From: a virus
Taxonomy: Duplodnaviria > Heunggongvirae > Uroviricota > Caudoviricetes
Strand: one strand, 5' to 3'
Length of the DNA: 57,929 nucleotides
IMG/VR virus record: IMGVR_UViG_2698536610_000002
This document shows positions 10,912-52,104 of the stretch, piece after piece. Both the position numbers and the translations under genes were made by a program. The notes under the pieces were generated by a model. The model saw only the letters and a program-made list of their open reading frames with translations. It ran no database searches and was not told the DNA's origin. Within the stretch, counting starts at the first letter, position 1, and each line of letters begins with the position of its first letter.

Positions 10912-11512
10912 ATTATATCCGCTACAGAACACAGTTTCCTTCAGGAAAACCACCGAAAAATGGGGGGGGCTTTCCAACATGGCTAAAGGATATCCATTGT
11001 TAATCAATGGGTTGCCTATTCAATCAAGTGAAATCCTTTACCAAGCATGCCGATATCCAGACTATCCGGATATACAAAAGGCCATCATTACTCAAGGAAA
11101 CCCCTATGAAGCCAAGCAGACCGCAAGATCGTTTGAATCCAAAACTCGCGCAGGATGGGATAAGAATCGAGTTTCGATTATGAAGTGGTGTGTATGCGTA
11201 AAATTATGCCAGAACTGGGATACGTTCTTTGCGCTGTTAGACAGTACAGGCGACCATTTCATCGTGGAACACTCAGAGAAGGACCAATTCTGGGGTGCCA
11301 GTAAAGACCCAGAAGGTAACTATTATGGTATGAACGTATTAGGGCGAATTCTCATGGACGTGAGAGGGGTTGCTAGGAAAAAGGGGGCTGATGGGTTTGC
11401 AACAATACCATCGCTATCTTTGGACAAATTTTTTCTCCTAGGCGAAAGAATTAAAGATGTAACATTTGTAGAGCCAACGCCTGGAGCAGGGCAAAGTTTA
11501 TCCTTGTTTTAG
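10883..11512 (+). CDS. NADAR-domain protein (YbiA-like N-glycosidase/ADP-ribose-processing superfamily)
   Basis: 209 aa; N-terminal GGLSNM-type signature (WGGLSNMAKGYPL) and overall YbiA/DUF1768-like layout; overlaps the upstream gene by 29 nt. Confidence 0.7.
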   Translation: MGIMSGMSYRLYPLQNTVSFRKTTEKWGGLSNMAKGYPLLINGLPIQSSEILYQACRYPDYPDIQKAIITQGNPYEAKQTARSFESKTRAGWDKNRVSIMKWCVCVKLCQNWDTFFALLDSTGDHFIVEHSEKDQFWGASKDPEGNYYGMNVLGRILMDVRGVARKKGADGFATIPSLSLDKFFLLGERIKDVTFVEPTPGAGQSLSLF

Positions 11513-17948: not shown

Positions 17949-18468
17949 ATGGAAGTCAACAAAAAGCAGCTGGCTGACATTTTCGGTGCGAGTATCCGTA
18001 CCATTCAGAACTGGCAGGAACAGGGAATGCCCGTTCTGCGAGGCGGTGGCAAGGGTAATGAGGTGCTTTATGACTCTGCCGCCGTTATAAGATGGTATGC
18101 CGAAAGGGATGCTGAAATTGAGAACGAAAAGCTGCGCCGGGAAGTTGAAGAACTGCGGCGGGCCAGCGAGACAGATCTCCAGCCAGGGACTATTGAGTAC
18201 GAACGCCATCGACTTACGCGTGCGCAGGCCGACGCACAGGAGCTGAAAAATGCCAGAGACTCCGCTGAAGTGGTGGAAACCGCATTCTGTACTTTCGTGC
18301 TGTCGCGGATCGCAGGTGAAATTGCCAGTATTCTCGACGGGATCCCCCTGTCGGTGCAGCGGCGTTTTCCGGAACTGGAAAACCGACATGTTGATTTCCT
18401 GAAACGGGATATCATCAAAGCCATGAACAAAGCAGCCGCGCTGGATGAACTGATATCGGGGTTGCTGA

Positions 18469-18494
<26 letters not shown>
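17949..18494 (+). CDS. Nu1: Terminase small subunit Nu1
   Basis: 181 aa MEVNKKQLADIFGASIRTIQNWQEQGMPVLRGGGKGNEV... matches lambda Nu1. Confidence 0.95.
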
Positions 18495-21475
<2,981 letters not shown>

Positions 21476-21552
21476 AACCCTTGCTGCGTCTGGAATGTCG
21501 TTTTCCATGCTTTTGATGACCGTTCATCACCCTTCCAGTTTTTCGCGGTTTT

Positions 21553-21604
21553 GTGTATTGCAATGTGTATTGCAAATTGGCGATCGGGATGGGTGTGTAT
21601 TGCA
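21553..21604 (+). repeat. Three direct copies of gtgtattgca next to the left junction (candidate integrase arm-type sites)
   Basis: gtgtattgca at 21553-21562, 21565-21574, 21595-21604, just upstream of the island int start (21624). Confidence 0.5.
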
Positions 21605-21623
21605 AATCTCTTGAGGGCTTTTA

Positions 21624-22865
21624 ATGGCTATTGAAAACAAACTCAGTGACAAACTGTTAAAGAGTCTTGTCGGAAAACGGCAGGACAAACAAAAAACAAT
21701 AGCGGATGGGCGCGGGTTGTCTGTGCGTGTAAGCATGGTTGGGGGGATCAGCTTTGTTTTTTACTATCGTCTTGGTGGCAGGGAATCCCCTCCGGTATGG
21801 CTTACACTTGGTCGCTATCCTGACATGTCTCTTGCAACGGCCAGGCGCATGCGTGATCAGTGCCGTGAATGGCTAGCTGAAAATCTGGACCCCCGCAGGC
21901 AAATAAAACTTGCTGCCGAAAAAACTATGCAACCAGTGACCGTAAGGGATGCGCTGTTTTACTGGTACGACAATCACGCCACAACAGCCAGAAAAGAGCA
22001 TGAATATTTAATAAAACGATTTGAAAAGCATATCTTCCCCTATATCGGTGATATGGCTATAGAACAGTGCAAATTACACACATGGCTTACCGTCTTTGAC
22101 AGGATCAAAAAAAATGCGCCTGTTATGTCTGGTGCAATTTTTCTTGATATCAAACAGGCGTTGCGTTTTTGTCGCGTCAGGCAATACATCGCGTGCGATC
22201 CCTTTGGAGATATTAACGTAAGTTATGTCGGGCGCTCATCCGGTATAAGGGATCGCGTTCTTAATATCAATGAAACCGCTGATGTATGGTCTTATGCTTA
22301 CGGTAATAATTTGCTAACTCTGTCATCAATATATAACCGAAGAATAATGGTTATCTGCCTGGTGTTTGGTTGCCGACAGCAGGAGGCGAGGCTATCCACC
22401 TGGGACGAATGGGATTTAAAAAACTGGGTATGGACAGTCCCAAAAGAGCACAGCAAAAACAAGGAGGCTATAGTAAGGCCTGTTCCTGACGGAATAAAAC
22501 AATGGATCGTTAATCTTTACGCAGAAACAAAAAATCGCGGTTATGTTGTCGGTTGTGCTTTGCAAAGGGCGACAATAACAGGGGCTGCAAACAGAATATG
22601 CAGGCGTCTTGGTCATGATACTAATGGCTTGTGGTGCATACATGATTTCAGGCGCACATTTTCCACTACGCTTAATGATATGGGGGCGGATCCTTATATT
22701 GTCGAACTTCTTTTAGGTCATAAAGTGAAAGGGGTTGCTGGTGTTTACAATAAAAGCAGGCATATAAAGAAAAAACTTGAGGTGCTTAATATGTGGGTTA
22801 ATTACCTTAATACGATAGCAGGATTTAACAACAACGTTATCGAGCTTAATAAAGAGGTGGTGTGA
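21624..22865 (+). CDS. int: P4-type tyrosine integrase
   Basis: 413 aa; N-terminal arm-binding-like region GRGLSVRVSMVGGISFVFYYR; C-terminal HDFRRTF...LLGHK...GVYNKS catalytic motifs. Confidence 0.9.
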   Translation: MAIENKLSDKLLKSLVGKRQDKQKTIADGRGLSVRVSMVGGISFVFYYRLGGRESPPVWLTLGRYPDMSLATARRMRDQCREWLAENLDPRRQIKLAAEKTMQPVTVRDALFYWYDNHATTARKEHEYLIKRFEKHIFPYIGDMAIEQCKLHTWLTVFDRIKKNAPVMSGAIFLDIKQALRFCRVRQYIACDPFGDINVSYVGRSSGIRDRVLNINETADVWSYAYGNNLLTLSSIYNRRIMVICLVFGCRQQEARLSTWDEWDLKNWVWTVPKEHSKNKEAIVRPVPDGIKQWIVNLYAETKNRGYVVGCALQRATITGAANRICRRLGHDTNGLWCIHDFRRTFSTTLNDMGADPYIVELLLGHKVKGVAGVYNKSRHIKKKLEVLNMWVNYLNTIAGFNNNVIELNKEVV

Positions 22866-22866
22866 T

Positions 22867-23124
22867 ATGGCAATTTATTCTCTTGTTGATGAAAACGATT
22901 TGCGCACAATGAAGGACATTGATCGGTTCATTCGTGAAAAAGAGTGCATAGCACTTACCACGCTGGCAAACTCAACACGCTGGAAAATGGAGCAGGCAGG
23001 TAAATTCCCGCGACGTATCAAGATCGGTGAACGTGCTGCAGGGTATCGACTTTCAGAGGTTCAGGCATGGATCCGTGGTGAGTGGCATCCTGGATGGAAA
23101 CCTGGAAAAACAAAACAGCAATAA
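22867..23124 (+). CDS. alpA: AlpA-family transcriptional regulator/excisionase-like protein
   Basis: 85 aa; KFPRRIKIGERAAGYRLSEVQAWIRGEW pattern typical of AlpA. Confidence 0.7.
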   Translation: MAIYSLVDENDLRTMKDIDRFIREKECIALTTLANSTRWKMEQAGKFPRRIKIGERAAGYRLSEVQAWIRGEWHPGWKPGKTKQQ

Positions 23125-23180
23125 CCAGTAAATAATGCCCCTCATCACGAGGGGTTTTTTGTCTATAAGGTAAAAACGCG

Positions 23181-23759
23181 ATGAATAAAAATATTGCCGT
23201 GACGGGCAAGGGGTACGCTCGTCCAGTGAAAAAATTCTGCGATATTCGTGATCTCGTCGTTCTGCGCTTTGATAGTGTGAACGTTCGTGTGGTGTATCTG
23301 AACGGCGATCCGTGGTTTGTTGCAAAAGATGTTTGTGCTGCGCTGGAACTAACCAATTCGCGTACGGCGTTGCAGATGCTTGATGATGATGAAAAGGGAG
23401 TAAATTTAACTTACACCCCAGGAGGAAATCAGAATATGAGAATTATCTCTGAGTCAGGTTTCTACAAACTAATAGCCCGCAGCCGCAAAGCAACGACGCC
23501 TGGCACATTTGCTCATCGTTTCAGTAACTGGGTATTCAGAAATGTGATACCAGGTATCAGAAAAACGGGGACTTATGGTATCCCGTGGGGTGCATTACAG
23601 GATTTTTCCCGCCGTAAAGAGCAATATCAAATAAGTGCCAGCGAGAAGGGGAGGGAGCTACAGGCATGTAAGCGCAAAAAGCGTGAGCTGGAGGAAGAAG
23701 AAAAAACGCTGATACGTGAATATCAGCCTGAGTTTTACTTTGGTAACCGCATTCAGTGA
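23181..23759 (+). CDS. Bro-N domain protein (antirepressor-like)
   Basis: VRVVYLNGDPWFVAKDVCAALELTNSRTALQMLDDDEKG is a canonical Bro-N signature. Confidence 0.7.
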   Translation: MNKNIAVTGKGYARPVKKFCDIRDLVVLRFDSVNVRVVYLNGDPWFVAKDVCAALELTNSRTALQMLDDDEKGVNLTYTPGGNQNMRIISESGFYKLIARSRKATTPGTFAHRFSNWVFRNVIPGIRKTGTYGIPWGALQDFSRRKEQYQISASEKGRELQACKRKKRELEEEEKTLIREYQPEFYFGNRIQ

Positions 23760-24092
23760 CAAAACAAAGGCGACCGCAAAAGGGTCGCCAGTGGGAACAA
23801 GGGAAAACAAAAGCATCACCAACAATGCCACATTTGCGGCTGGTGGGCAATGTGATCAGTCAGATTTGGTTCGTTCCAAGGTTTGCAACGAGAGCTTTTT
23901 CCTGTGCTCTTTAAGGAATTTCTCAAGAGCAAACGAACAAGGTGCGAATCTTTCTGATTCATGTTCATGCGCTATATTTTTGCGTCGTCTCTTACGAGTT
24001 GGTGATGGTGTTTTGGTTGATTCTGTGTCGCTCATGGTGCTGTCCTGTAAAGCAATGCGCCTGCGTTCCTCAAACTATGGCGCTGATATTGG

Positions 24093-24398
24093 CTATTCAT
24101 GCTCTTTGACCTTGCGTCGCTGGAGTTCTTCACGCGCGACGGTGACGAGTTGCCCGATCTCCTCGGCTGCTTTGATGCCGATTTGTTCGACCTTAGCCAG
24201 GGCATCCAGTGACGACACAAGGGGATTTTCTCCGCTGCCTTCTGCTTGGCGGCGGGCTATTTCTCCGCGCATGGCGGTTACGATAAATCCGGCATTGCTT
24301 TCACCGTCCAGCTTAACGGATTCCATCCCTTGCATAACATCTAGTGGGACTCTGACAGTTGTCAGTTGTGATTTTGCGTTTTTGTTAGCCGTTGCCAT
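24093..24398 (-). CDS. Hypothetical protein divergent from the small-ORF operon (possible regulator)
   Basis: 101-aa ORF; start codon confirmed at 24396-24398; lies opposite a promoter/operator region. Confidence 0.45.
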   Translation of the reverse strand: MATANKNAKSQLTTVRVPLDVMQGMESVKLDGESNAGFIVTAMRGEIARRQAEGSGENPLVSSLDALAKVEQIGIKAAEEIGQLVTVAREELQRRKVKEHE

Positions 24399-24459
24399 TT
24401 CTGAAACTCCTAATCATCGGTGTGTTTCAGTATACACAAAAAAAGAAATACAAAAAGCC

Positions 24460-24497
24460 TTGACGTGTGTTTCATGCGCTCATAACATGAAACACAC
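24460..24497 (+). promoter_or_regulatory. Sigma70-like promoter overlapped by an inverted repeat (candidate operator)
   Basis: ttgacg (24460-24465), 17-nt spacer, taacat (24483-24488); inverted repeat gtgtgtttcatg ... catgaaacacac spans the -10 element. Confidence 0.5.
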
Positions 24498-24588
24498 CGA
24501 AAGGATTGTTGAAATACAAAGAGCAACGCCCCGCAGTGCTGGGAACACATACGGGGCGTCTAACCAACAACGTAAACTAGGAGCCGTT

Positions 24589-24786
24589 ATGGTTGCTGTA
24601 AATCATATACCACACCTTGTACACACACAAACGGCCTTTGTGTGGCGTTTTCTGGCACTGAGTGCCGGAGAATCTCAAATCATCCACGTAACCGCCTGGA
24701 CGGAACGCGAAGCGCGTAGCCGTTGCCCGTCCGGTTGTGTTGCTGTATTCGCTGCAAAAATCCGCCAGGGAGTGAGTCATGCTTAA
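24589..24786 (+). CDS. Small hypothetical protein (first gene of the island operon)
   Basis: 65-aa ORF with SD aggag 7 nt upstream; stop overlaps next ORF start. Confidence 0.45.
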   Translation: MVAVNHIPHLVHTQTAFVWRFLALSAGESQIIHVTAWTEREARSRCPSGCVAVFAAKIRQGVSHA

Positions 24787-24964
24787 AACCTTCCGTGTAT
24801 TTGCCCGAGCTGTTAACCCAATAGGCCACGCAATTGGTATCGCTCAGAATGTGAAGGCTGTTAATGTTCAGACGGCTATTGCTGCGGTGAGAAGCGAATC
24901 ATCAGAATATGGCTTATCACAAGTCATTATTTCAGCAGTGTATGAATTAAAAGAGGTGCATTAA
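24779..24964 (+). CDS. Small hypothetical protein
   Basis: 61-aa ORF; start/stop overlap neighbours (translationally coupled chain). Confidence 0.4.
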   Translation: MLKTFRVFARAVNPIGHAIGIAQNVKAVNVQTAIAAVRSESSEYGLSQVIISAVYELKEVH

Positions 24965-25155
24965 TGCAGGAAATTACATTACACGAAGCCGCTGAACGTG
25001 CGCACCAGACAGAAATTATTTGCCGCCTTCTTGAGGTATACCCGAACAAAATTACAGATGCTGATATATCCGCACTGGCGAGCCTACTGGCGCGTCTTTC
25101 GGGAAGTGTCGCTAGTTTTTTGATTGAGGAAGAAAGTAAGCTGGTGGGGGATTAA
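24964..25155 (+). CDS. Small hypothetical protein
   Basis: 63-aa ORF in the coupled chain. Confidence 0.4.
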   Translation: MQEITLHEAAERAHQTEIICRLLEVYPNKITDADISALASLLARLSGSVASFLIEEESKLVGD

Positions 25156-25377
25156 ATGAATACAGAACGGGAAGTCTTTTTTAAATTGTTAGCATGTGCA
25201 GAAAGTTCATTAACTTTAAATAATTCAGCAAAAGCAATATTAAATATGTGGCTTGATTGCATAAATGACAATGAAGATGCAAATATTGCTTATGGCCTGT
25301 TGTCACTTATTGATGAATCAGCAGAAAAACTCAATGACGCAATAAATAGTGCCCTGCTATCAAATAAGTCGAGTTAA
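25156..25377 (+). CDS. Small hypothetical protein
   Basis: 73-aa AT-rich ORF in the coupled chain. Confidence 0.4.
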   Translation: MNTEREVFFKLLACAESSLTLNNSAKAILNMWLDCINDNEDANIAYGLLSLIDESAEKLNDAINSALLSNKSS

Positions 25378-25394
25378 GTCGAGGAATAAATAAT

Positions 25395-25694
25395 ATGGAA
25401 ATGAAAAATTCTGGCTTTATTGCCAGCGGCCCCGCTCGAACTGAATTTATGAACGGCGATATTTACCGCGATAAATACGGCGGCACGGTAACGATTAAAG
25501 GCGTGGCAGAACGGCGCATCACTTACCGCCGTGAGGGGTATAGCTATGACTGCGTGATGCCTGTTTATCAGTTCCGGCGTGATTTTTCCCTGGTATATGC
25601 CACACCCCGCAGTAAGCCCATCAGCAGGGAAAAAGCGTGGGGAAATATCCAGAAAATGAAAACCATGATTAACGGATTCAGAGGTAAAAAATGA
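25395..25694 (+). CDS. Hypothetical protein
   Basis: 99-aa ORF; stop overlaps the primase start. Confidence 0.45.
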   Translation: MEMKNSGFIASGPARTEFMNGDIYRDKYGGTVTIKGVAERRITYRREGYSYDCVMPVYQFRRDFSLVYATPRSKPISREKAWGNIQKMKTMINGFRGKK

Positions 25695-27445
25695 AACTGG
25701 CACCGAACGTAAAACAGCAGTCACGCGGCATAAAACACAAAGGAACAGAAGTCATTATTTTTGCGGGTAGTGATGCCTGGGCACACGCGAAACAATGGCA
25801 GGAACATGATGCGCGTATGGCCGGAGATAATGAGCCTCCTGTGTGGCTTGGGGAGCAGCAGCTATCCGAACTGGATAATCTGCAAATTGTGCCGGAAGGC
25901 CGAAAATCAGCACGCATATACAGGGCCGGATATCTTGCGCCTGTAATGATAAAGGCGATTGGTCAGAAGCTGGCGGCAGCAGGCGTACAGGATGCAAATT
26001 TTTATCCTGAGGGTATGCACGGCCAGGAGGTGCAGAACTGGCGCGAATATCTGGCCCGTGAACGCCAGAATCTTTCTGATGGTCTGGTCATTGAGCTTCC
26101 GGTAAAGCAAAAGGCGCAACTTTCGCAGATGGCGGACAGTGAGCGCGCGCAGTTGCTTGCCGATCGCTTTGATGGCGTTTGCGTACATCCTGAAAGTGAA
26201 ATCGTTCACGTATGGCGCGGCGGGGTATGGTGTCCGGTCAGCACAATGGAACTTAGCCGCGAAATGGTGGCGATCTATTCAGAGCACAGGGCCACTTTCA
26301 GCAAGCGCGTAATCAATAACGCCGTGGAAGCGTTAAAAGTTATTGCCGAACCAATGGGCGAGCCGTCTGGCGATTTGCTGCCGTTCGCCAATGGTGCGCT
26401 TGACCTGAAAACGGGGGAATTTTCCCCGCACACGCCGGAGGACTGGATCACCACGCACAACGGCATTGAGTACACGCCACCAGCACCAGGGGAGAACATC
26501 CGCGATAACGCGCCAAACTTTCATAAATGGCTTGAGCACGCAGCCGGAAAAGACCCGCGCAAGATGATGCGTATATGTGCCGCGCTGTACATGATTATGG
26601 CGAACCGGTACGACTGGCAGATGTTTATTGAGGCCACCGGAGACGGCGGGAGCGGTAAAAGTACATTCACACACATAGCCAGCCTTCTGGCAGGGAAACA
26701 GAACACGGTAAGCGCTGAAATGACATCGCTTGATGATGCTGGTGGACGTGCGCAGGTTGTCGGGAGTCGTCTTATCGTCCTGGCTGACCAGCCGAAATAT
26801 ACAGGCGAAGGAACGGGCATCAAGAAAATCACAGGCGGCGACCCCGTGGAAATTAACCCGAAATATGAAAAGCGTTTCACGGCGGTAATCAGGGCGGTGG
26901 TGCTGGCGACCAACAACAACCCGATGATATTCACCGAACGGGCCGGAGGTGTGGCACGTCGTCGCGTGATTTTCCGTTTCGACAATATCGTCAGTGAGGC
27001 CGAAAAAGACAGGGAGCTACCGGAAAAGATTGCGGCTGAAATCCCCGTTATTATCCGCCGATTGCTGGCGAACTTTACCGACCCTGAGAAGGCACGGGCT
27101 TTACTACTGGAACAGCGTGACGGTGATGAAGCACTGGCAATAAAGCAACAGACGGATCCGGTTATTGAGTTTTGCCAGTTCCTGAATTTTCTGGAGGAAG
27201 CGCGCGGCCTGATGATGGGTGGCGGTGGTGATTCAGTGAAGTACACGACCAGGAACAGCCTTTACCGCGTCTATCTGGCGTTTATGGCATACGCGGGCAG
27301 GAGCAAACCGCTAAACGTGGCTGAGTTCAGCAAGGCCATGAAGCCAGCGGCGAAAGTTTACGGGCATGAATATATTACGCGAAAAGTTAAGGGAGTAACG
27401 CAGACCAACGCAATTACAACAGACGATTGCGACGCGTTTTTATAA
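25691..27445 (+). CDS. P4-alpha-like primase-helicase (D5/P4-family C-terminal NTPase)
   Basis: 584 aa; Walker A TGDGGSGKST and Walker B-like RLIVLAD; size and position typical of satellite replication proteins. Confidence 0.85.
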   Translation: MKLAPNVKQQSRGIKHKGTEVIIFAGSDAWAHAKQWQEHDARMAGDNEPPVWLGEQQLSELDNLQIVPEGRKSARIYRAGYLAPVMIKAIGQKLAAAGVQDANFYPEGMHGQEVQNWREYLARERQNLSDGLVIELPVKQKAQLSQMADSERAQLLADRFDGVCVHPESEIVHVWRGGVWCPVSTMELSREMVAIYSEHRATFSKRVINNAVEALKVIAEPMGEPSGDLLPFANGALDLKTGEFSPHTPEDWITTHNGIEYTPPAPGENIRDNAPNFHKWLEHAAGKDPRKMMRICAALYMIMANRYDWQMFIEATGDGGSGKSTFTHIASLLAGKQNTVSAEMTSLDDAGGRAQVVGSRLIVLADQPKYTGEGTGIKKITGGDPVEINPKYEKRFTAVIRAVVLATNNNPMIFTERAGGVARRRVIFRFDNIVSEAEKDRELPEKIAAEIPVIIRRLLANFTDPEKARALLLEQRDGDEALAIKQQTDPVIEFCQFLNFLEEARGLMMGGGGDSVKYTTRNSLYRVYLAFMAYAGRSKPLNVAEFSKAMKPAAKVYGHEYITRKVKGVTQTNAITTDDCDAFL

Positions 27446-27454
27446 TTTTTTGTA

Positions 27455-27700
27455 AAAGCCATCTACCCCATCTACCTGAACAAAATAAACTCATATTATT
27501 CAACATGATAAGTGGGTATAGGGCTAGGTAGAAGGCTAATAAAAGCTCTCTACCTCTTCTACCTGATTTTATCAGTTTCAGGTAGCAGGGTAGACGGCAG
27601 GTAGAGGAGTCAAAAAGCTATCTACCCGCTGAAAGCCGCGCCATTACTGACATGATGAGCATTCGGGTAGATGGGTAGAGGGGGGGAGGCACAACTAAAA
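27455..27700. repeat. Iteron cluster (repeated ctacc/ggtag-containing motifs) downstream of the primase: candidate island ori
   Basis: catctaccccatctacctg, gctaggtagaagg, ctctacctcttctacctg, caggtagcagggtagacggcaggtagagg, ctatctacccg, cgggtagatgggtagaggg. Confidence 0.6.
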
Positions 27701-27731
27701 ACTTTTTAAACGAGGGGGGGGGTGAAAATAA

Positions 27732-28046
27732 ATGCGCATACATAAAAATCACTTAACAAACATGCCAGCCGAAAACATGAATCAGGGGCGACAAATGACC
27801 AAAATTCGCAGAGACAGAACACAGGCAAAATATAAAGCGTTAGACATGACAGAGCTTTCCTTAAAGGTGGCAATCAAAGCGATAGACCACCACACACGGG
27901 CAGGATACGCGAAGGAACATCCCGACCTGATAAGCGCATTCATGACCACAGCAGCGGCAAACTTTGCCACGCTGACAGAACGGGAGATTGCCGAAGCGGA
28001 ACAGGTGACAACCATCAATGTTAAAACCGGAGAGCAGACAGCATGA
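27732..28046 (+). CDS. Hypothetical protein
   Basis: 104-aa ORF preceded by a G9 homopolymer (27714-27722). Confidence 0.4.
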   Translation: MRIHKNHLTNMPAENMNQGRQMTKIRRDRTQAKYKALDMTELSLKVAIKAIDHHTRAGYAKEHPDLISAFMTTAAANFATLTEREIAEAEQVTTINVKTGEQTA

Positions 28047-28465
28047 CAGCACAGATAGCGGCTTACGGGCGGCTGGTGGCTGACCCGCAGTTAAAGACCA
28101 CCAGCAAAGGGACACAAATGGCGATGGCGAGTATGGCGGTTCCCCTGCCGTGCAGCCAGGCAGATGACGGAACGGCGACGATGTGGTTATCCGTCCTGGC
28201 GTTTGGCAGACAGGCCGACGCACTGGCAAAACACCACAAAGGCGAACTGGTGAGCGTGGCGGGTAACATGCAGGTAAGCCAGTGGACAGGCCAGAACGGC
28301 GAAACGCGGCGGGGCTGGCAGGTTATCGCAGACAGCGTAATCAGTGCGCGAACGGCGCGACCGGGCGGCAAAAAAGGCCAGCAGGGGCAGGCCACTGACG
28401 CACTGAACAGGGCAAAACAACAGTCGGGGAATGATGATCCGTACGGCGATAATATACCGTTTTAA
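28043..28465 (+). CDS. SSB-like single-stranded DNA-binding protein
   Basis: 140 aa; Gly/Gln-rich tail ending in the acidic DDPYGDNIPF motif characteristic of SSB C-termini. Confidence 0.55.
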   Translation: MTAQIAAYGRLVADPQLKTTSKGTQMAMASMAVPLPCSQADDGTATMWLSVLAFGRQADALAKHHKGELVSVAGNMQVSQWTGQNGETRRGWQVIADSVISARTARPGGKKGQQGQATDALNRAKQQSGNDDPYGDNIPF

Positions 28466-28676
28466 ATTCTACAAACAAAAAGATGCCGGAAAAAAATAGA
28501 TTTTCCGGCATGCTACATAAATCCCGACCAAAGGAAGTAAATACATTAACACGAATTATCAGCACTGAAGTTGTTACGGCATATTTTATACAACATTGCA
28601 CTTGGTTGCATGTATTCGCATAGCAGACATCGGTAATAGAATATATTCACAATTATTTGTAATGAATGTAAAGAGG

Positions 28677-29723
28677 ATGAGTATGGTTGATTTATATTCG
28701 CCTACACAGCTTGTGCAGGTGGCTAATGCTGAAGATGTGCAAAAAAAATTAAATGCGTTGTTTACCAGTTTGTTTTTCACTCGCTCGGTAATGTTTGAAT
28801 CGAGAGACATTATTCTTGATACGATCGACGATCCAAATATCCCGATCGCGGCGTTTTGCTCTCCTATGGTGGGCAGTAAAGTTTCACGAGATGAGGGATA
28901 CGAATCAAAAACAATTCGTCCAGGTTATATGAAGCCGAAAAGCAGCATTGATCCAAATAAGTTAGCTGTGCGCCCTGCTGGTGTGTCACCTGAGCAATAC
29001 AATGCTTTTGGGGCGCGTAATATTAAAGTTAAACAGGCGATTGTAAATCAGGCTAAAGCTATTCGTGCACGTATTGAATGGCTTGCTGTTCAGGCAATCA
29101 CAACGGGGAAAAATATCATTGAGGGCGATGGTATTGAACGTTATGAGCTGGACTGGAATATAAAACCACAAAATATCATCACTCAGTCTGGCGGTACTGA
29201 GTGGTCAGGTAAGGATAAAGAAACTTTTGATCCAAATGATGATATTGAGAGCTACGCAGAATTTAGTGAGGGCGTCACTAATATCATCATTATGGGTGGT
29301 AATGTATGGAAGAAATACCGTTCATTCAGAGCGATAAAAGAGGCTTTGGATACCCGTCGTGGTTCTAATTCCGAACTGGAAACGGCCCTTAAAGACCTTG
29401 GTGATTCGGTGAGTTTTAAAGGGTATATGGGCGATGTTGCGATTGTTGTTTACAGCGGGCGTTATACCGACGAGGACGGAACAGAAAAACATTTCCTTGA
29501 TCCTGATTTGATGGTGCTTGGCAATACGGCTCTTCAGGGGATTGTCGCCTATGGCGGTATTCAGGATCCGGAGCTAATCCGAATGGGGCTGACTAAAGCC
29601 GAACTTGCACCGAAAAACTATATTGTGCCTGGTGATCCGGCTATTGAATATGTGCAGACACATTCAGCACCACAGCCAATACCGGCCCGCATCAATCGTT
29701 TTGTTACCGTTCGCATTGGCTAA
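28677..29723 (+). CDS. Major capsid protein E homologue (island copy)
   Basis: Starts MSM like lambda gpE; blocks ITQSGGTEWS, LDTRRGSNSELETALKDLG and YMGDVAIVVYSG align with the helper gpE at 34793-35818. Confidence 0.8.
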   Translation: MSMVDLYSPTQLVQVANAEDVQKKLNALFTSLFFTRSVMFESRDIILDTIDDPNIPIAAFCSPMVGSKVSRDEGYESKTIRPGYMKPKSSIDPNKLAVRPAGVSPEQYNAFGARNIKVKQAIVNQAKAIRARIEWLAVQAITTGKNIIEGDGIERYELDWNIKPQNIITQSGGTEWSGKDKETFDPNDDIESYAEFSEGVTNIIIMGGNVWKKYRSFRAIKEALDTRRGSNSELETALKDLGDSVSFKGYMGDVAIVVYSGRYTDEDGTEKHFLDPDLMVLGNTALQGIVAYGGIQDPELIRMGLTKAELAPKNYIVPGDPAIEYVQTHSAPQPIPARINRFVTVRIG

Positions 29724-29732
29724 GGGGGAGCA

Positions 29733-30074
29733 ATGCCTACTCATTACACTGAACTCATGGCTGGCACTGAAGCACTGGTGACTACGCTGGGGATATTTTC
29801 AGCTAATAAAGGGGTAATTCCTGCATTTACGCCACTGATGCAGGAAGATGCAACAGGTGCACTGGTGGTATGGGATGGTTCGAGCGTAGGTAAAGCGGTT
29901 TATGTTTCCGCTGTACAAATCGACACAGCGAAAAAAACACAGGCACAGGTTTATAAGACAGGTGTTTTAAATGTTGATGCTCTGAACTGGCCTGAGTCTG
30001 TAAAAGAACTGTCGGCAAAGGTTGCCGCGTTTGTTGGCTCAGGTATTTCTGTTCAGCCGCTGGCTCGTGTGTAA
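29733..30074 (+). CDS. Head decoration protein D homologue (island copy)
   Basis: 113 aa; FTPLMQEDATGALVVWDGSSVGKAVYVSAV and AAFVGSGISV align with lambda gpD ([30 protein letters not shown] ... AFAGTAISI). Confidence 0.8.
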   Translation: MPTHYTELMAGTEALVTTLGIFSANKGVIPAFTPLMQEDATGALVVWDGSSVGKAVYVSAVQIDTAKKTQAQVYKTGVLNVDALNWPESVKELSAKVAAFVGSGISVQPLARV

Positions 30075-30085
30075 AGGGGGATACA

Positions 30086-30469
30086 ATGCAGAATCATTAC
30101 AATGACCTTAAGCCAATTGCCGAAATGATGTATCCGGATCCAGCAGTAGAGGAATTAAAGGCTATTGCTGACAAAATGCGTTTAAGTGAACGCCTTGTTG
30201 ATATGAATCAGGTGATGGAACTTACTACCCTTAGCCGTCGCACATTGCTAAACCTTGAGGCTCGCGGAGAGTTCCCCGAACGCGTACAGGTTACGGAAGG
30301 GCGTAAGGCCTGGTATTTAAGTGAAGTGATCGACTGGATAAACAATATTCCTCGATCTTCTGAATATTGCCGCGTATCTGTCCCAAAAAAGCCAGATGCG
30401 GCGCTATGCCTCAAGATTGAGCGTGTACGTCGCAATGCACGGGATGGTCGCTATAAGTTGATTGGTTGA
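30086..30469 (+). CDS. HTH protein (AlpA/MerR-like) upstream of the island cos
   Basis: 127 aa; LTTLSRRTLLNLEARGEFPERVQV...WYLSEVIDWINN resembles an AlpA-type HTH. Confidence 0.45.
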   Translation: MQNHYNDLKPIAEMMYPDPAVEELKAIADKMRLSERLVDMNQVMELTTLSRRTLLNLEARGEFPERVQVTEGRKAWYLSEVIDWINNIPRSSEYCRVSVPKKPDAALCLKIERVRRNARDGRYKLIG

Positions 30470-30525
30470 TGAAATTAGGGCCCGTTCTGGCTGGCGGGTC
30501 CTTTCCGGCGATCCGGTAGGCTACG

Positions 30526-30537
30526 GGGCGGCGACCT
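30526..30537. other. Second cosN (gggcggcgacct) belonging to the island
   Basis: gggtcctttccggcgatccggtaggctacg gggcggcgacct cgcgggttttcgctatttatga: near-identical to the helper cos for ~75 nt, then diverges in the cosB region. Confidence 0.8.
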
Positions 30538-30685
30538 CGCGGGTTTTCGCTATTTATGAGCCTTTTTCGGGTGCTGGTGGTGGTTTTGTTGTTCGCTCTA
30601 TCTCTATGAATAAAAAGGAAAAGATAAAGCCAATACACCAACCTGAAACATTACTTAAGTGGGGATATTGATGAAATCGCACCTG

Positions 30686-31213
30686 ATGAACAAAAAAAAC
30701 ATGGCGCAAAGCTGCCGTGTAAGTGCGACAGCGTTCGACAAGTGGGGAGTGACTCCCGTTGAACGTAAAGGCCGCGAGGCGTTTTATGATGTTGCCAGCG
30801 TAATAGACAATCGGGTTAGCAATGCAATTAACCAGATTACAGACGACAAAGGCGAGATTGATGATGATGAACTCCTACGAGTCAGGATCAGATTGCTGAC
30901 AGCACAGGCAGAGGCGCAGGAGCTTAAAAACGAGCGCGAACGCGGCGACGTTATTGATACAGCGTTTTGTATATACGTGCTTTCAAAATTGGCGAGTCAG
31001 ATTTCTTCAATCATGGACAGCCTGCCGCTTGCCATGACAAGGAAGTTTCCCGACATGAAGCCGTCTATGCTGGATGGACTGAAAAAAGAAGTTATCAGAG
31101 CCTGTAACGCATGCGCAAAACTTGACGAAAACATACCGCTGATGCTGTCCGATTATCTGATGGAAACTGCCGGAAACGTACCGGATAAGTTGCAGCCGAA
31201 TAAAGATAAGTAA
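30686..31213 (+). CDS. Nu1-like small terminase subunit (island copy, divergent N-terminal DNA-binding domain)
   Basis: Start set at MNKKNMAQ (Nu1 MEVNKKQLA); C-terminal ELKNERERGDVIDTAFCIYVLSKLASQISSIMDSLPLAMTRKFP aligns with Nu1 ELKNARDSAEVVETAFCTFVLSRIAGEIASILDGIPLSVQRRFP. Confidence 0.8.
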   Translation: MNKKNMAQSCRVSATAFDKWGVTPVERKGREAFYDVASVIDNRVSNAINQITDDKGEIDDDELLRVRIRLLTAQAEAQELKNERERGDVIDTAFCIYVLSKLASQISSIMDSLPLAMTRKFPDMKPSMLDGLKKEVIRACNACAKLDENIPLMLSDYLMETAGNVPDKLQPNKDK

Positions 31214-31224
31214 CGTAGTACGCT

Positions 31225-31506
31225 ATGACTGAATCCGAAATACTGCGATTAATCCGCCGTGCTTGTGGAATCAGCAAGCAGCATGACGAACAGGCCACGC
31301 AGCCGGACAGCGTGACCGCAGATAATTATGTGCGTGTAGTGGCTGAGGTGATGCGCCGTGACGGTATTGAGCTTAACGGCGTGGATATGCGCAACATACG
31401 AACAAGAGTCCTTGAGTTGCTGGCATATCGTCGCCGTTCTCAACAACGGAGGGAGAGCGCGAAAAATACTTACCAGTGGAAGAAGCCGGAACGATTGCGG
31501 CGGTAA
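31225..31506 (+). CDS. Hypothetical protein
   Basis: 93-aa ORF, Arg-rich C-terminus. Confidence 0.4.
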   Translation: MTESEILRLIRRACGISKQHDEQATQPDSVTADNYVRVVAEVMRRDGIELNGVDMRNIRTRVLELLAYRRRSQQRRESAKNTYQWKKPERLRR

Positions 31507-31521
31507 CTTGCTGATATTCCC

Positions 31522-31879
31522 GATAACGCAAAATTGCGCTGGCTGACTTGTTGCATTGCAAAAAGTTAAGCAGGAAGGCACGGCCTGTAAGATGGGATGC
31601 AGTAAGTAGTTCAAGGCTACCTTGTGCTGGCACGCACAGTTAAGCCGTCGGTGCTGGATATCCCCCACTGGGGGAAAAGCTGGCTACATCCCTCACATCT
31701 GAGGACTGATAACGCGACATTGCGCTGGCTGGCAAAGTGCAAAATTGCACGATGGCCTAACCCATTGATTATTTCGAAAACCTGCAATGCAGGAAATCGG
31801 GGAAGTAAGCCTAAGCTATTAATTGTTTCGAAAACCCCCATTGGGGGATGTCGGGAAAGTAAGACTAACCCATTGATTC
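31522..31879. repeat. Non-coding array of repeated hairpin-containing modules
   Basis: gataacgc(a/g)a(a/c)attgcgctggctg twice (31522, 31708); tandem ~55-bp units tt(a/g)tttcgaaaacc[hairpin]g(a/g)tcggg(g/a)aagtaag(c/a)ctaa at 31770 and 31825; cccattgatt flanks at 31761 and 31870. Confidence 0.55.
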
Positions 31880-32220
31880 TTCCACAATCCTCAATTTGAG
31901 GAGGCCGGAACGTCTACATAGCTGCATCGCCGTAATGATGATTCAGCCCACCAGCCAAATCAGCACAGCAACGACAGAATAGCCCGACACAGAAAAACCA
32001 CGAATATGGGGTTTTTGTTATGACATGGTCATGATGACCACTCATACAAAACAGGTAAAGCCCACCAGCCTGATTAAAGGTTAACCGGAAAAAAGCCAGG
32101 TATCCAATCTCGATATGGGGATCCCTATATCGACATTAACGCCCACTAAAACTGTGCATATATGCATAGAAAAAGCATCCACCAGCTTTATGACGGATGC
32201 CGCTCATCTTATAAATAATC

Positions 32221-32242
32221 GTGTATTGCAGTGTGTATTGCG
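32221..32242 (+). repeat. Two copies of gtgtattgc(a/g) next to the right junction
   Basis: gtgtattgca 32221-32230 and gtgtattgcg 32233-32242, same motif as at the left end. Confidence 0.5.
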
Positions 32243-32321
32243 ACTCCTTTAAACGATAGGTCTGAGCATTCGTAATGTACTGTTTTTAAATTTTATTTTT
32301 TCCTGTCTTTTCATAAAGGCG

Positions 32322-33095
32322 ATGTATGCCGCCACCATTGAGAGTGAGCTGGATACGCAGTCAGCGATGGATTTTATTCTGGGCGCGAACAGTCAGGAGC
32401 AGCGGGAAAGGCTGACCGGCTGGATTGGTGAAATTGCCGCGTATTACGCCGCAGCACCGGTCCGTCTGGGAGGCGCAAAAGTGCCGCACCTGATGCCGGG
32501 GGACTCACTGAACCTGCAGACGGCTCAGGACACGGATAACGGCTACTCCGTGTTTGAGCAGTCACTGTTGCGGTATATCGCTGCCGGGCTGGGTGTCTCG
32601 TATGAGCAGCTTTCCCGGAATTACGCCCAGATGAGCTACTCCACGGCACGGGCCAGTGCGAACGAGTCGTGGGCGTACTTTATGGGGCGGCGAAAATTCG
32701 TCGCATCCCGTCAGGCGAGCCAGATGTTTCTGTGCTGGCTGGAAGAGGCCATCGCTCGCCGCGTGGTGACGTTACCTTCAAAAGCGCGCTTCAGTTTTCA
32801 GGAAGCCCGAAGTGCCTGGGGGAACTGCGACTGGATAGGCTCCGGTCGTATGGCCATCGATGGTCTGAAAGAAGTACAGGAAGCGGTGATGCTGATAGAA
32901 GCCGGACTGAGTACCTACGAGAAAGAGTGCGCAAAACGCGGTGACGACTATCAGGAAATTTTTGCCCAGCAGGTCCGTGAAACGATGGAGCGCCGTGCAG
33001 CCGGTCTTAAACCGCCCGCCTGGGCGGCTGCGGCATTTGAATCCGGACTGCGACAATCAACAGAGGAGGAGAAGAGTGACAGCAGAGCTGCGTAA
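32322..33095 (+). pseudogene. B: Portal protein B, C-terminal 257 codons, separated from the N-terminal part by the island
   Basis: MYAATIESELDTQSAMDFILGANSQEQRERLTGW... continues lambda gpB exactly from the residue after ...SAIVKA. Confidence 0.85.
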
Positions 33096-51520: not shown

Positions 51521-52104
51521 TGGCATTCAGAATGAGTGAACAACCACGGACCATAAAAATTTATAATCTGCTGGCCGGAACTAATGAATTTATTGGTGAA
51601 GGTGACGCATATATTCCGCCTCATACAGGTCTGCCTGCAAACAGTACCTATATTGCACCGCCAGATATTCCGGCTGGTTTCGTGGCTGTTTTCAACAGTG
51701 ATGAGGCATCGTGGCATCTCGTTGAAGATCATCGGGGTAAAACGGTTTATGACGTGGCTTCCGGCGACGCGTTATTTATTTCTGAACTCGGCTCATTACC
51801 GGAAAATGTCACTTGGTTATCCCCGGAAGGGGAGTTTCAGAAGTGGAACGGCACAGCCTGGGTGAAGGATACGGAAGCAGAAAAACTGTTCCGGATCCGG
51901 GAGGCGGAAGAAACAAAAAACAGCCTGATGCAGGTAGCCAGTGAGCATATTGCGCCGCTTCAGGATGCTGCAGATCTGGAAATCGCAACGGAGGAAGAAA
52001 CCTCGTTGCTTGAAGCCTGGAAGAAGTATCGGGTGTTGCTGAATCGTGTTGATACATCAACTGCACCTGATATTGAGTGGCCCGCAATCCCTGTTATGGA
52101 ATAA
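51520..52104 (+). CDS. tfa: Tail fibre assembly chaperone Tfa
   Basis: 194 aa [48 protein letters not shown]... matches lambda Tfa. Confidence 0.9.

Follow-up and report, generated by a model that had tools for sequence, protein, structure and literature searches.

A probable EcCICFT073-family replication origin bordered by a length-variable Shine-Dalgarno G-run in a satellite island of a lambdoid prophage

The analysed DNA, a stretch of 57,929 bases referred to as the window, carries a satellite island of ~11 kb (about 21480-32315) that splits the portal gene of a lambdoid prophage and is co-oriented with it. The N-terminal part of the portal is encoded at 20594-21475 and the C-terminal part at 32322-33095; in the annotation of E. 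coli NZ_AP045067 the gene is divided in this way as well. The terminase (17949-20394) lies upstream, and protease, gpD and capsid follow downstream in relatives. The island presents in order an integrase, AlpA, a Bro-N protein, an Icd-like protein, a DUF4222 protein, pri, the ori spacer, a small ORF, SSB, a lambda-E-like capsid protein, a gpD-like protein, a second AlpA-like protein, a lambda cosN and a Nu1-like gene. A location inside a prophage late gene and in its orientation is characteristic of helper-embedded PICIs, for which the published site list includes B:Phage_portal_2:241 (Tommasini, Mageeney & Williams 2023). The island is inserted in the cognate of lambda B (portal), the C-terminal portal fragment begins at position 238 of the Pfam profile, in agreement with this site, and the zone order int-alpA / Bro / replication / late showed no notable difference. 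The origin of these elements was not dissected in that study.

Further elements were observed at the borders and in the late zone of the island. A short crossover identity, AAGGCGAT(T/G)TATG, is present at about 21420 and about 32315. Repeats of GTGTATTGC occur three times beside int (21573-21603) and twice near the right end (32220-32241), and look like arm-type integrase binding sites of attL/attR. A lambda cosN/cosB-like sequence, GGGCGGCGACCTCGCGGGTTTTCGCTATTTATGA, at 30524-30560 is located upstream of the Nu1-like gene (30659-31213), whose match to the Nu1 profile is confined to the C-terminal half; this is what one would expect of an Rpp-type packaging redirector. Decaying island copies were encountered in two loci, L002 (NZ_CP119441) and L014 (NZ_AP022177), with IS1 flanking or interrupting pri and the capsid gene and one ssb containing an internal stop. 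The sole RNA family match at gathering score in the window was Rfam IS009 at 51863-52061 (220.9 bits).

The replication initiator gene of the island, pri (25691-27445, + strand), encodes a protein of 584 aa with D5_N/DUF5906 SF3-helicase domains, additional matches to Pfam Pox_D5 and TIGR01613, and a C-terminal P4-alpha-like origin-binding domain (residues 488-576). The helicase core matches PDB 7OLA (E=4e-15), residues 488-576 match PDB 1KA8, the origin-binding domain of P4 alpha (E=8.5e-6), and over residues 141-573 the identity to P4 alpha (residues 324-756) is 40%. By the 1KA8 match and this identity Pri is an alpha-type initiator with a C-terminal winged-helix origin-binding domain, but the first ~320 residues of P4 alpha, with the N-terminal primase region and its EGYATA motif, have no counterpart in Pri. 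The window Pri is homologous to Pri of EcCICFT073, with 97.6% identity over 584 aa and 97.1% in the C-terminal 105 aa. The most variable part is formed by the N-terminal 134 residues, which share 61% identity with RepA-type initiators. A small, weakly Toprim-like fold is predicted for this domain; it seems to be devoid of catalytic acidic residues, and on visual inspection other residues seem to stand in place of the Toprim glutamate and the DxD motif. The N-terminus was also considered as the domain that sets iteron specificity. Two loci with a mismatch of origin and N-terminus ruled this out: L004 has a window-type ori, yet its N-terminus is 67%-identical, and L008 has a CFT073-type ori, yet its N-terminus is 97%-identical.

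Immediately behind pri lies a cluster of short repeats. The first-pass annotation, made from the sequence alone, had reported at least ten copies of a ctacc/ggtag motif in both orientations after the primase gene, and this is borne out by 11 exact CTACC/GGTAG cores at 27463-27678, five on the + strand and six on the - strand. Over the whole window of 57,929 bases the core is in no excess over chance with a total of 48 copies, from which ~0.2 cores are expected per 216 bp vs. the 11 seen. The longer word TCTACCY, which fits ten of the 11 cores in 27462-27679, occurs 15 times in the window against an expectation of 6.4 +/- 2.5, a count that 0 of 100 shuffles reached. Ten of these 15 copies fall in 27462-27679 and just five elsewhere in the 58 kb; a second TCTACCY cluster or a further TCTACCY site was not found elsewhere in the island. 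The iteron cluster is therefore real and strongly non-random. Its first iteron starts 17 nt past the pri stop codon, placing the site directly 3' of the initiator gene as in PICI origins. By strand, the order is two +, an AT-rich gap, one or two -, two +, three -, one +, a 37-bp gap and two -, with a spacing of 8-11 bp between neighbouring iterons inside a group.

The origin of replication was assigned to the whole iteron-bearing spacer between pri and the ribosome binding site of the next gene (27446-27713), on the basis of its homology to the cloned Pri-dependent CFT073 spacer. Conservation was assessed in an alignment of 13 E. coli spacer alleles that are 71-96% identical and aligned throughout. 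Iterons 1 and 2 (TCTACCC and TCTACCT, 27462-27477, + strand) are direct repeats 9 bp apart, and their TCTACC is invariant in 13/13 alleles. They are followed by an AT-rich stretch of 80-84% A+T in 25-bp windows (27476-27511), found at the same position in all relatives and a likely candidate for the melting site. Inverted copies come next, so that two iteron sets surround an AT-rich region. A degenerate twelfth copy, GGTATA (27515-27520, - strand), reads GGTAGA in relatives, and iteron 3 (AGGTAGA, 27526-27532, - strand) was found in 7/13 alleles. Iterons 4 and 5 (TCTACCT twice, 27549-27564, + strand) are again direct and 9 bp apart and are kept in 11/13 and 10/13 alleles, respectively. In the group of iterons 6-8 (AGGTAGC, GGGTAGA and AGGTAGA, 27580-27605, - strand) the first is lineage-specific (2/13 alleles), the others are present in 13/13 and 12/13. 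Iteron 9 (TCTACCC, 27621-27627, + strand) is invariant in 13/13 alleles and borders a conserved non-iteron box, GCTGAAAGCCGCGCCATTACTG (27628-27649), nearly invariant over the 13 alleles, whose CTGAAA is also present at the matching relative place in P4 crr units. Iterons 10 and 11 (GGGTAGA twice, 8 bp apart, 27665-27679, - strand) are kept in all alleles. G-run 1 (G7, 27680-27686, + strand) abuts the last iteron; in other ori alleles an A or T breaks it up. The box AAAAACTTTTTAAAC (27697-27711), an A-tract, a C and a T-tract, is invariant in the 13 alleles and is followed by GA and G-run 2 (G9; together 27712-27722, + strand), an enlarged form of an ancestral GAGGGGG that serves ATG 27732 as its Shine-Dalgarno stretch. 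In total, nine iteron positions are kept in nearly all 13 alleles and two are lineage-specific; 68% of the iteron-core columns are invariant vs. 21% of the other columns (Fisher p=6e-12).

Some motifs of the spacer recur beyond this alignment. In the origins from E. coli, Serratia and Morganella the last inverted iteron pair is followed by a box A4-8(C/G)T4-6. One P4 crr unit has this box too; the other has an A8T6 tract without the central C/G. E. coli and P4 also have in common a CTGAAA placed between the + iteron and the last pair. Iterons 10 and 11 together with the G7 constitute a canonical G-quadruplex motif, GGGTAGATGGGTAGAGGGGGGG (G3N5G3N4G3N1G3, 27665-27686), restricted to alleles with an uninterrupted G7 or G8. 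Neither a sigma-70 promoter nor a terminator was predicted in the segment, and no Rfam family was detected there apart from a lone chance match to a plant miRNA (E=0.5). A scan of 27430-27760 revealed no DnaA box, IHF site or GATC; an origin driven by host initiators is thus without support.

A stretch of 601 bases spanning the segment had matches in 1,221 of 5,426 complete E. coli genomes, and in 347 of them the match covered 80% or more of its length. Among Gram-negative PICIs the model island is EcCICFT073, which was located at NC_004431 1377930-1388654 (locus L017). Its gene order is the same (DUF4222, pri, spacer, small ORF, ssb, capsid, decoration protein), and its spacer of 288 bp aligns end to end with the window ori. 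Both share the TCTACC iteron core and the layout of a direct pair, an AT-rich stretch and then inverted sets, as well as the invariant boxes and the ending GAGGGGG-TAAAAATAAA-ATG. The spacer DNA, however, is only about 74% identical to the window allele. Two iteron positions differ (27526 and 27580 in the window, an extra + copy in CFT073), the window G-runs are expanded to G7 and G9 vs. an interrupted run and G5 in CFT073, the downstream ORF of the window has a 63-nt 5' extension, and the CFT073 island occupies a chromosomal site between roxA and phoQ instead of a prophage portal gene. A hairpin TTACTGGC/GCCAGTAA in the conserved box is present in the CFT073 type and absent in the window allele, and was rejected as a family feature.

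For these islands the origin has been mapped directly 3' of pri, with two iteron sets around an AT-rich region; plasmid maintenance needed pri and was lowered significantly by deletion of ori (Fillol-Salom 2018, ISME J, PMC6092414). The CFT073 'primase-ori' has since served as a conditional origin whose replication depends on the primase gene in trans, and the plasmids in the supplement carry exactly the CFT073 spacer, from just after the pri stop to GAGGGGGTAAA (Brödel 2024, Nature, PMC11338833). The window segment is homologous to this functionally tested fragment, with nine iteron positions and two invariant boxes conserved. The proposal of the first-pass annotation that the repeats form a satellite origin is supported by this relationship, and the cloning test it had suggested has in effect been performed on the sister allele, since the CFT073 spacer was cloned in the published work. 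Dependence of replication on Pri and the spacer is experimental for the CFT073 allele; for the window allele it would follow by homology.

Initiators and iterons of more distant relatives were compared as well. The search for Pri in genome contigs gave only three loci, enough for a small covariation test and too few for statistics. Relatives from Serratia (iterons TGTTCAC) and Morganella (TGTTCAT) have P4-type words in the same layout after the initiator gene. Their helicase cores are 60-62% identical to the window Pri vs. 44-47% to P4 alpha, whereas their C-terminal domains are 47-51% identical to P4 alpha vs. 33-38% to the window Pri. The iteron word therefore follows the C-terminal domain, a covariation that rests on five systems. 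Where E. coli islands encode a RepA-type helicase in place of Pri, the repeats at this position read GTGGGGA, upstream of the same small ORF. These comparisons support a specific recognition of the iterons by the C-terminal domain of the initiator, for which TCTACC would be the predicted binding word.

In phage P4 the element directly 3' of alpha is crr, with TGTTCACC repeats in both orientations according to the GenBank annotation. The island resembles P4 in having iterons of both orientations right behind the initiator gene, in a homologous helicase and C-terminal origin-binding domain (40% identity), and in the order inside a crr unit (+ iteron, CTGAAA, two - iterons, A/T box), which is matched by the 3' half of the cluster. 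It differs from P4 in its iteron, TCTACC(C/T) vs. the type 1 iteron TGTTCACC, in the absence of 120-bp duplicated units, and in a Pri that is missing the first ~320 residues of alpha with the EGYATA primase motif. In P4, ori and crr are split and lie about 4.5 kb apart; the island has one cluster and therefore a single origin. The SaPIs, Gram-positive PICIs, have likewise an origin immediately 3' of the initiator gene with two iteron sets around an AT-rich region (PMC6092414) and a related helicase core (PDB 7OLA match), but their iteron sequences and DNA-binding domain are unrelated to those of the window, and pri and rep are separate genes in many SaPIs.

Downstream of the spacer, a small ORF of PHROG 1231 (27732-28046, + strand) encodes 104 aa from ATG 27732 or 83 aa from ATG 27795 and overlaps by 4 nt the start of the gene for the island-encoded single-strand DNA-binding protein of the replication zone (28043-28465, + strand; Pfam SSB, TIGR00621). 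Members of the CFT073 clade offer no start for the small ORF other than the ATG after GAGGGGG-TAAAAATAAA, which identifies G-run 2 as its Shine-Dalgarno stretch. In the window clade ATG 27732 is kept in frame, and a 63-nt extension precedes the second ATG 27795 with its own AGGGG. PGAP places the start at the equivalent of 27795 in the window clade and of 27732 in the CFT073 clade; PGAP, PHROG 1231 and the RepA-type islands all favour 27795 as the usual start of the family, and 27732 and 27795 are both candidate starts. The in-frame extension (27732-27794) is specific to the window ori clade; the 6-7 substitutions in it among relatives are all non-synonymous, and a recombination breakpoint with RepA-type islands is situated at about 27788-27795. 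The extension may be an untranslated leader that belongs to the ori module.

Three G/C runs of at least 7 occur in the window, a number not above chance: G-run 1, which ends 45 nt before ATG 27732, G-run 2 at 27714-27722, which ends 9 nt before it, and a G8 at 10962-10969. The first-pass annotation had placed the G9 correctly and the G7 one base off (about 27681-27687 instead of 27680-27686), and had suggested that slippage in both runs could modulate expression of the next ORF unless their lengths proved invariant. They vary. Over 34 loci with the window ori allele, G-run 2 has lengths of 5 (14 loci), 6 (3), 7 (10), 8 (5), 9 (the window) and 10 (1), and G-run 1 of 7 (27) and 8 (7). The G-rich patch that G-run 1 forms beside the last iteron is lineage-specific. 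Loci that differ from the window at up to 7 positions per 535 bp of flank all have a G-run 2 of 6-10, and the 14 loci beyond that distance all have 5; within haplotypes of identical 800-bp flanks its lengths are 8, 8, 7, 6, 6, in another 7, 7, 9 and in a third 10, 7, and it is therefore hypermutable. This variation shows mutability, not function. A contingency device, in which slippage tunes or switches the small ORF, ssb and the late genes, could explain five lengths of G-run 2 (6-10; G-run 1 7-8) among 18 near-identical loci with at most 6 differences in the 535-bp flank, and the position of the run 9 nt upstream of the ATG whose Shine-Dalgarno it forms; we nevertheless regard it as quite improbable. 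The tract lies upstream of the ATG and outside any ORF, no predicted promoter straddles it, and a promoter-spacer role was dropped because the promoter/terminator scan found nothing. Expansion leaves the 3' edge of the run and its spacing to the ATG unmoved. In a folding/anti-SD model, crude and with an assumed mRNA 5' end, the duplex energy (-11.6 to -12.2 kcal/mol) and the accessibility of the ribosome binding site (0.52-0.59) are flat from G5 to G12, and the window clade has a second possible start at ATG 27795 with its own AGGGG. Outside the window lineage 60 of 62 alleles have G5 (46 of 47 of the CFT073-type, 14 of 15 diverged window-type loci); G5 is therefore the stable ancestral and by far commonest state, expanded in one recent lineage, which fits a runaway expansion better than a switch. 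Of the slippage idea the length variation is thus retained, while modulation of expression finds no support in the model, and G-run 2 looks unlikely as an expression switch. That the length differences are sequencing or assembly artefacts of homopolymers is rather unlikely as well. Many complete E. coli genomes are long-read assemblies, prone to miscount long homopolymers, and variation is confined to runs of at least 6, where such errors also rise; yet the same spread of 5-10 was obtained in IMG/VR contigs, whose ids suggest isolate and metagenome projects, match lengths are common to hits of similar source (598 in several avian/APEC, 599 in several chicken GPEC hits), and a G-run 1 of 7 or 8 tracks haplotype groups. 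The polymorphism is real at the assembly level and probably neutral.

Other functions of the repeats were weighed against that of an origin. Inverted pairs upstream of the ssb/capsid operon are operator-like, and AlpA, the Bro-N protein or a helper factor might act there as a transcription regulator of the downstream operon. We give next to no weight to this, since the repeat word switches with the type and the C-terminal domain of the adjacent initiator while the downstream gene is constant, supplying Pri alone is enough for the homologous spacer to replicate, and the promoter prediction was negative; as a secondary role, Pri bound at the iterons might damp read-through. Hardly more credible is a P4-crr-like cis enhancer only, with the true initiation elsewhere in the island: the P4 element directly 3' of alpha is annotated as crr, not ori, and the 3' half of the cluster is co-linear with a crr unit, but the island has no second TCTACCY cluster and the CFT073 spacer alone suffices as a plasmid origin. 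A further reading, a long shot, starts from the missing primase region of Pri. Priming by an R-loop or hybrid G-quadruplex at a G-run is known from ColE1 and mitochondrial CSB II; likewise, read-through RNA from pri could serve as primer in an R-loop or hybrid G-quadruplex, stabilised by the G-rich non-template strand right after the last iterons (27665-27686, then the G9). If so, the G-run polymorphism would tune the copy number of the satellite rather than translation.

It is highly probable that 27446-27713 is a PICI origin of the EcCICFT073 family operated by Pri and its iterons, with a length drift of G-run 2 that is most likely without consequence. Pri would act as an SF3 (D5-type) helicase whose C-terminal winged-helix domain is homologous to the P4 alpha origin-binding domain. 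The 11-12 TCTACC(C/T) iterons, in oppositely oriented pairs 8-11 bp apart, would be bound by Pri, binding would open the AT-rich stretch 27476-27511, and Pri would load itself as replicative helicase; we infer these three steps because the components are homologous to characterised systems. The excised circle would then be copied by host enzymes. The 3' end of the segment carries the signals from which translation of the next gene (the small ORF, then ssb) would start, and there the Shine-Dalgarno stretch GAGGGGG appears to have grown to G6-G10 in the window lineage, prone to slippage and drifting in length. This model of binding and melting leaves the conserved boxes 27628-27649 and 27697-27711 unaccounted for.

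The origin family is already known: it was mapped in 2018 and is in use as conditional replicons in engineered phage particles, so the segment is no new kind of element. The present case confirms that a reader of the sequence alone can spot a satellite origin. The analysis adds a residue-level map of one more allele and a Shine-Dalgarno G-run that turned hypermutable in one recent lineage. It also adds comparative evidence that iteron specificity follows the P4-alpha-like C-terminal domain and not the helicase core, a link useful for designing orthogonal primase-ori pairs.
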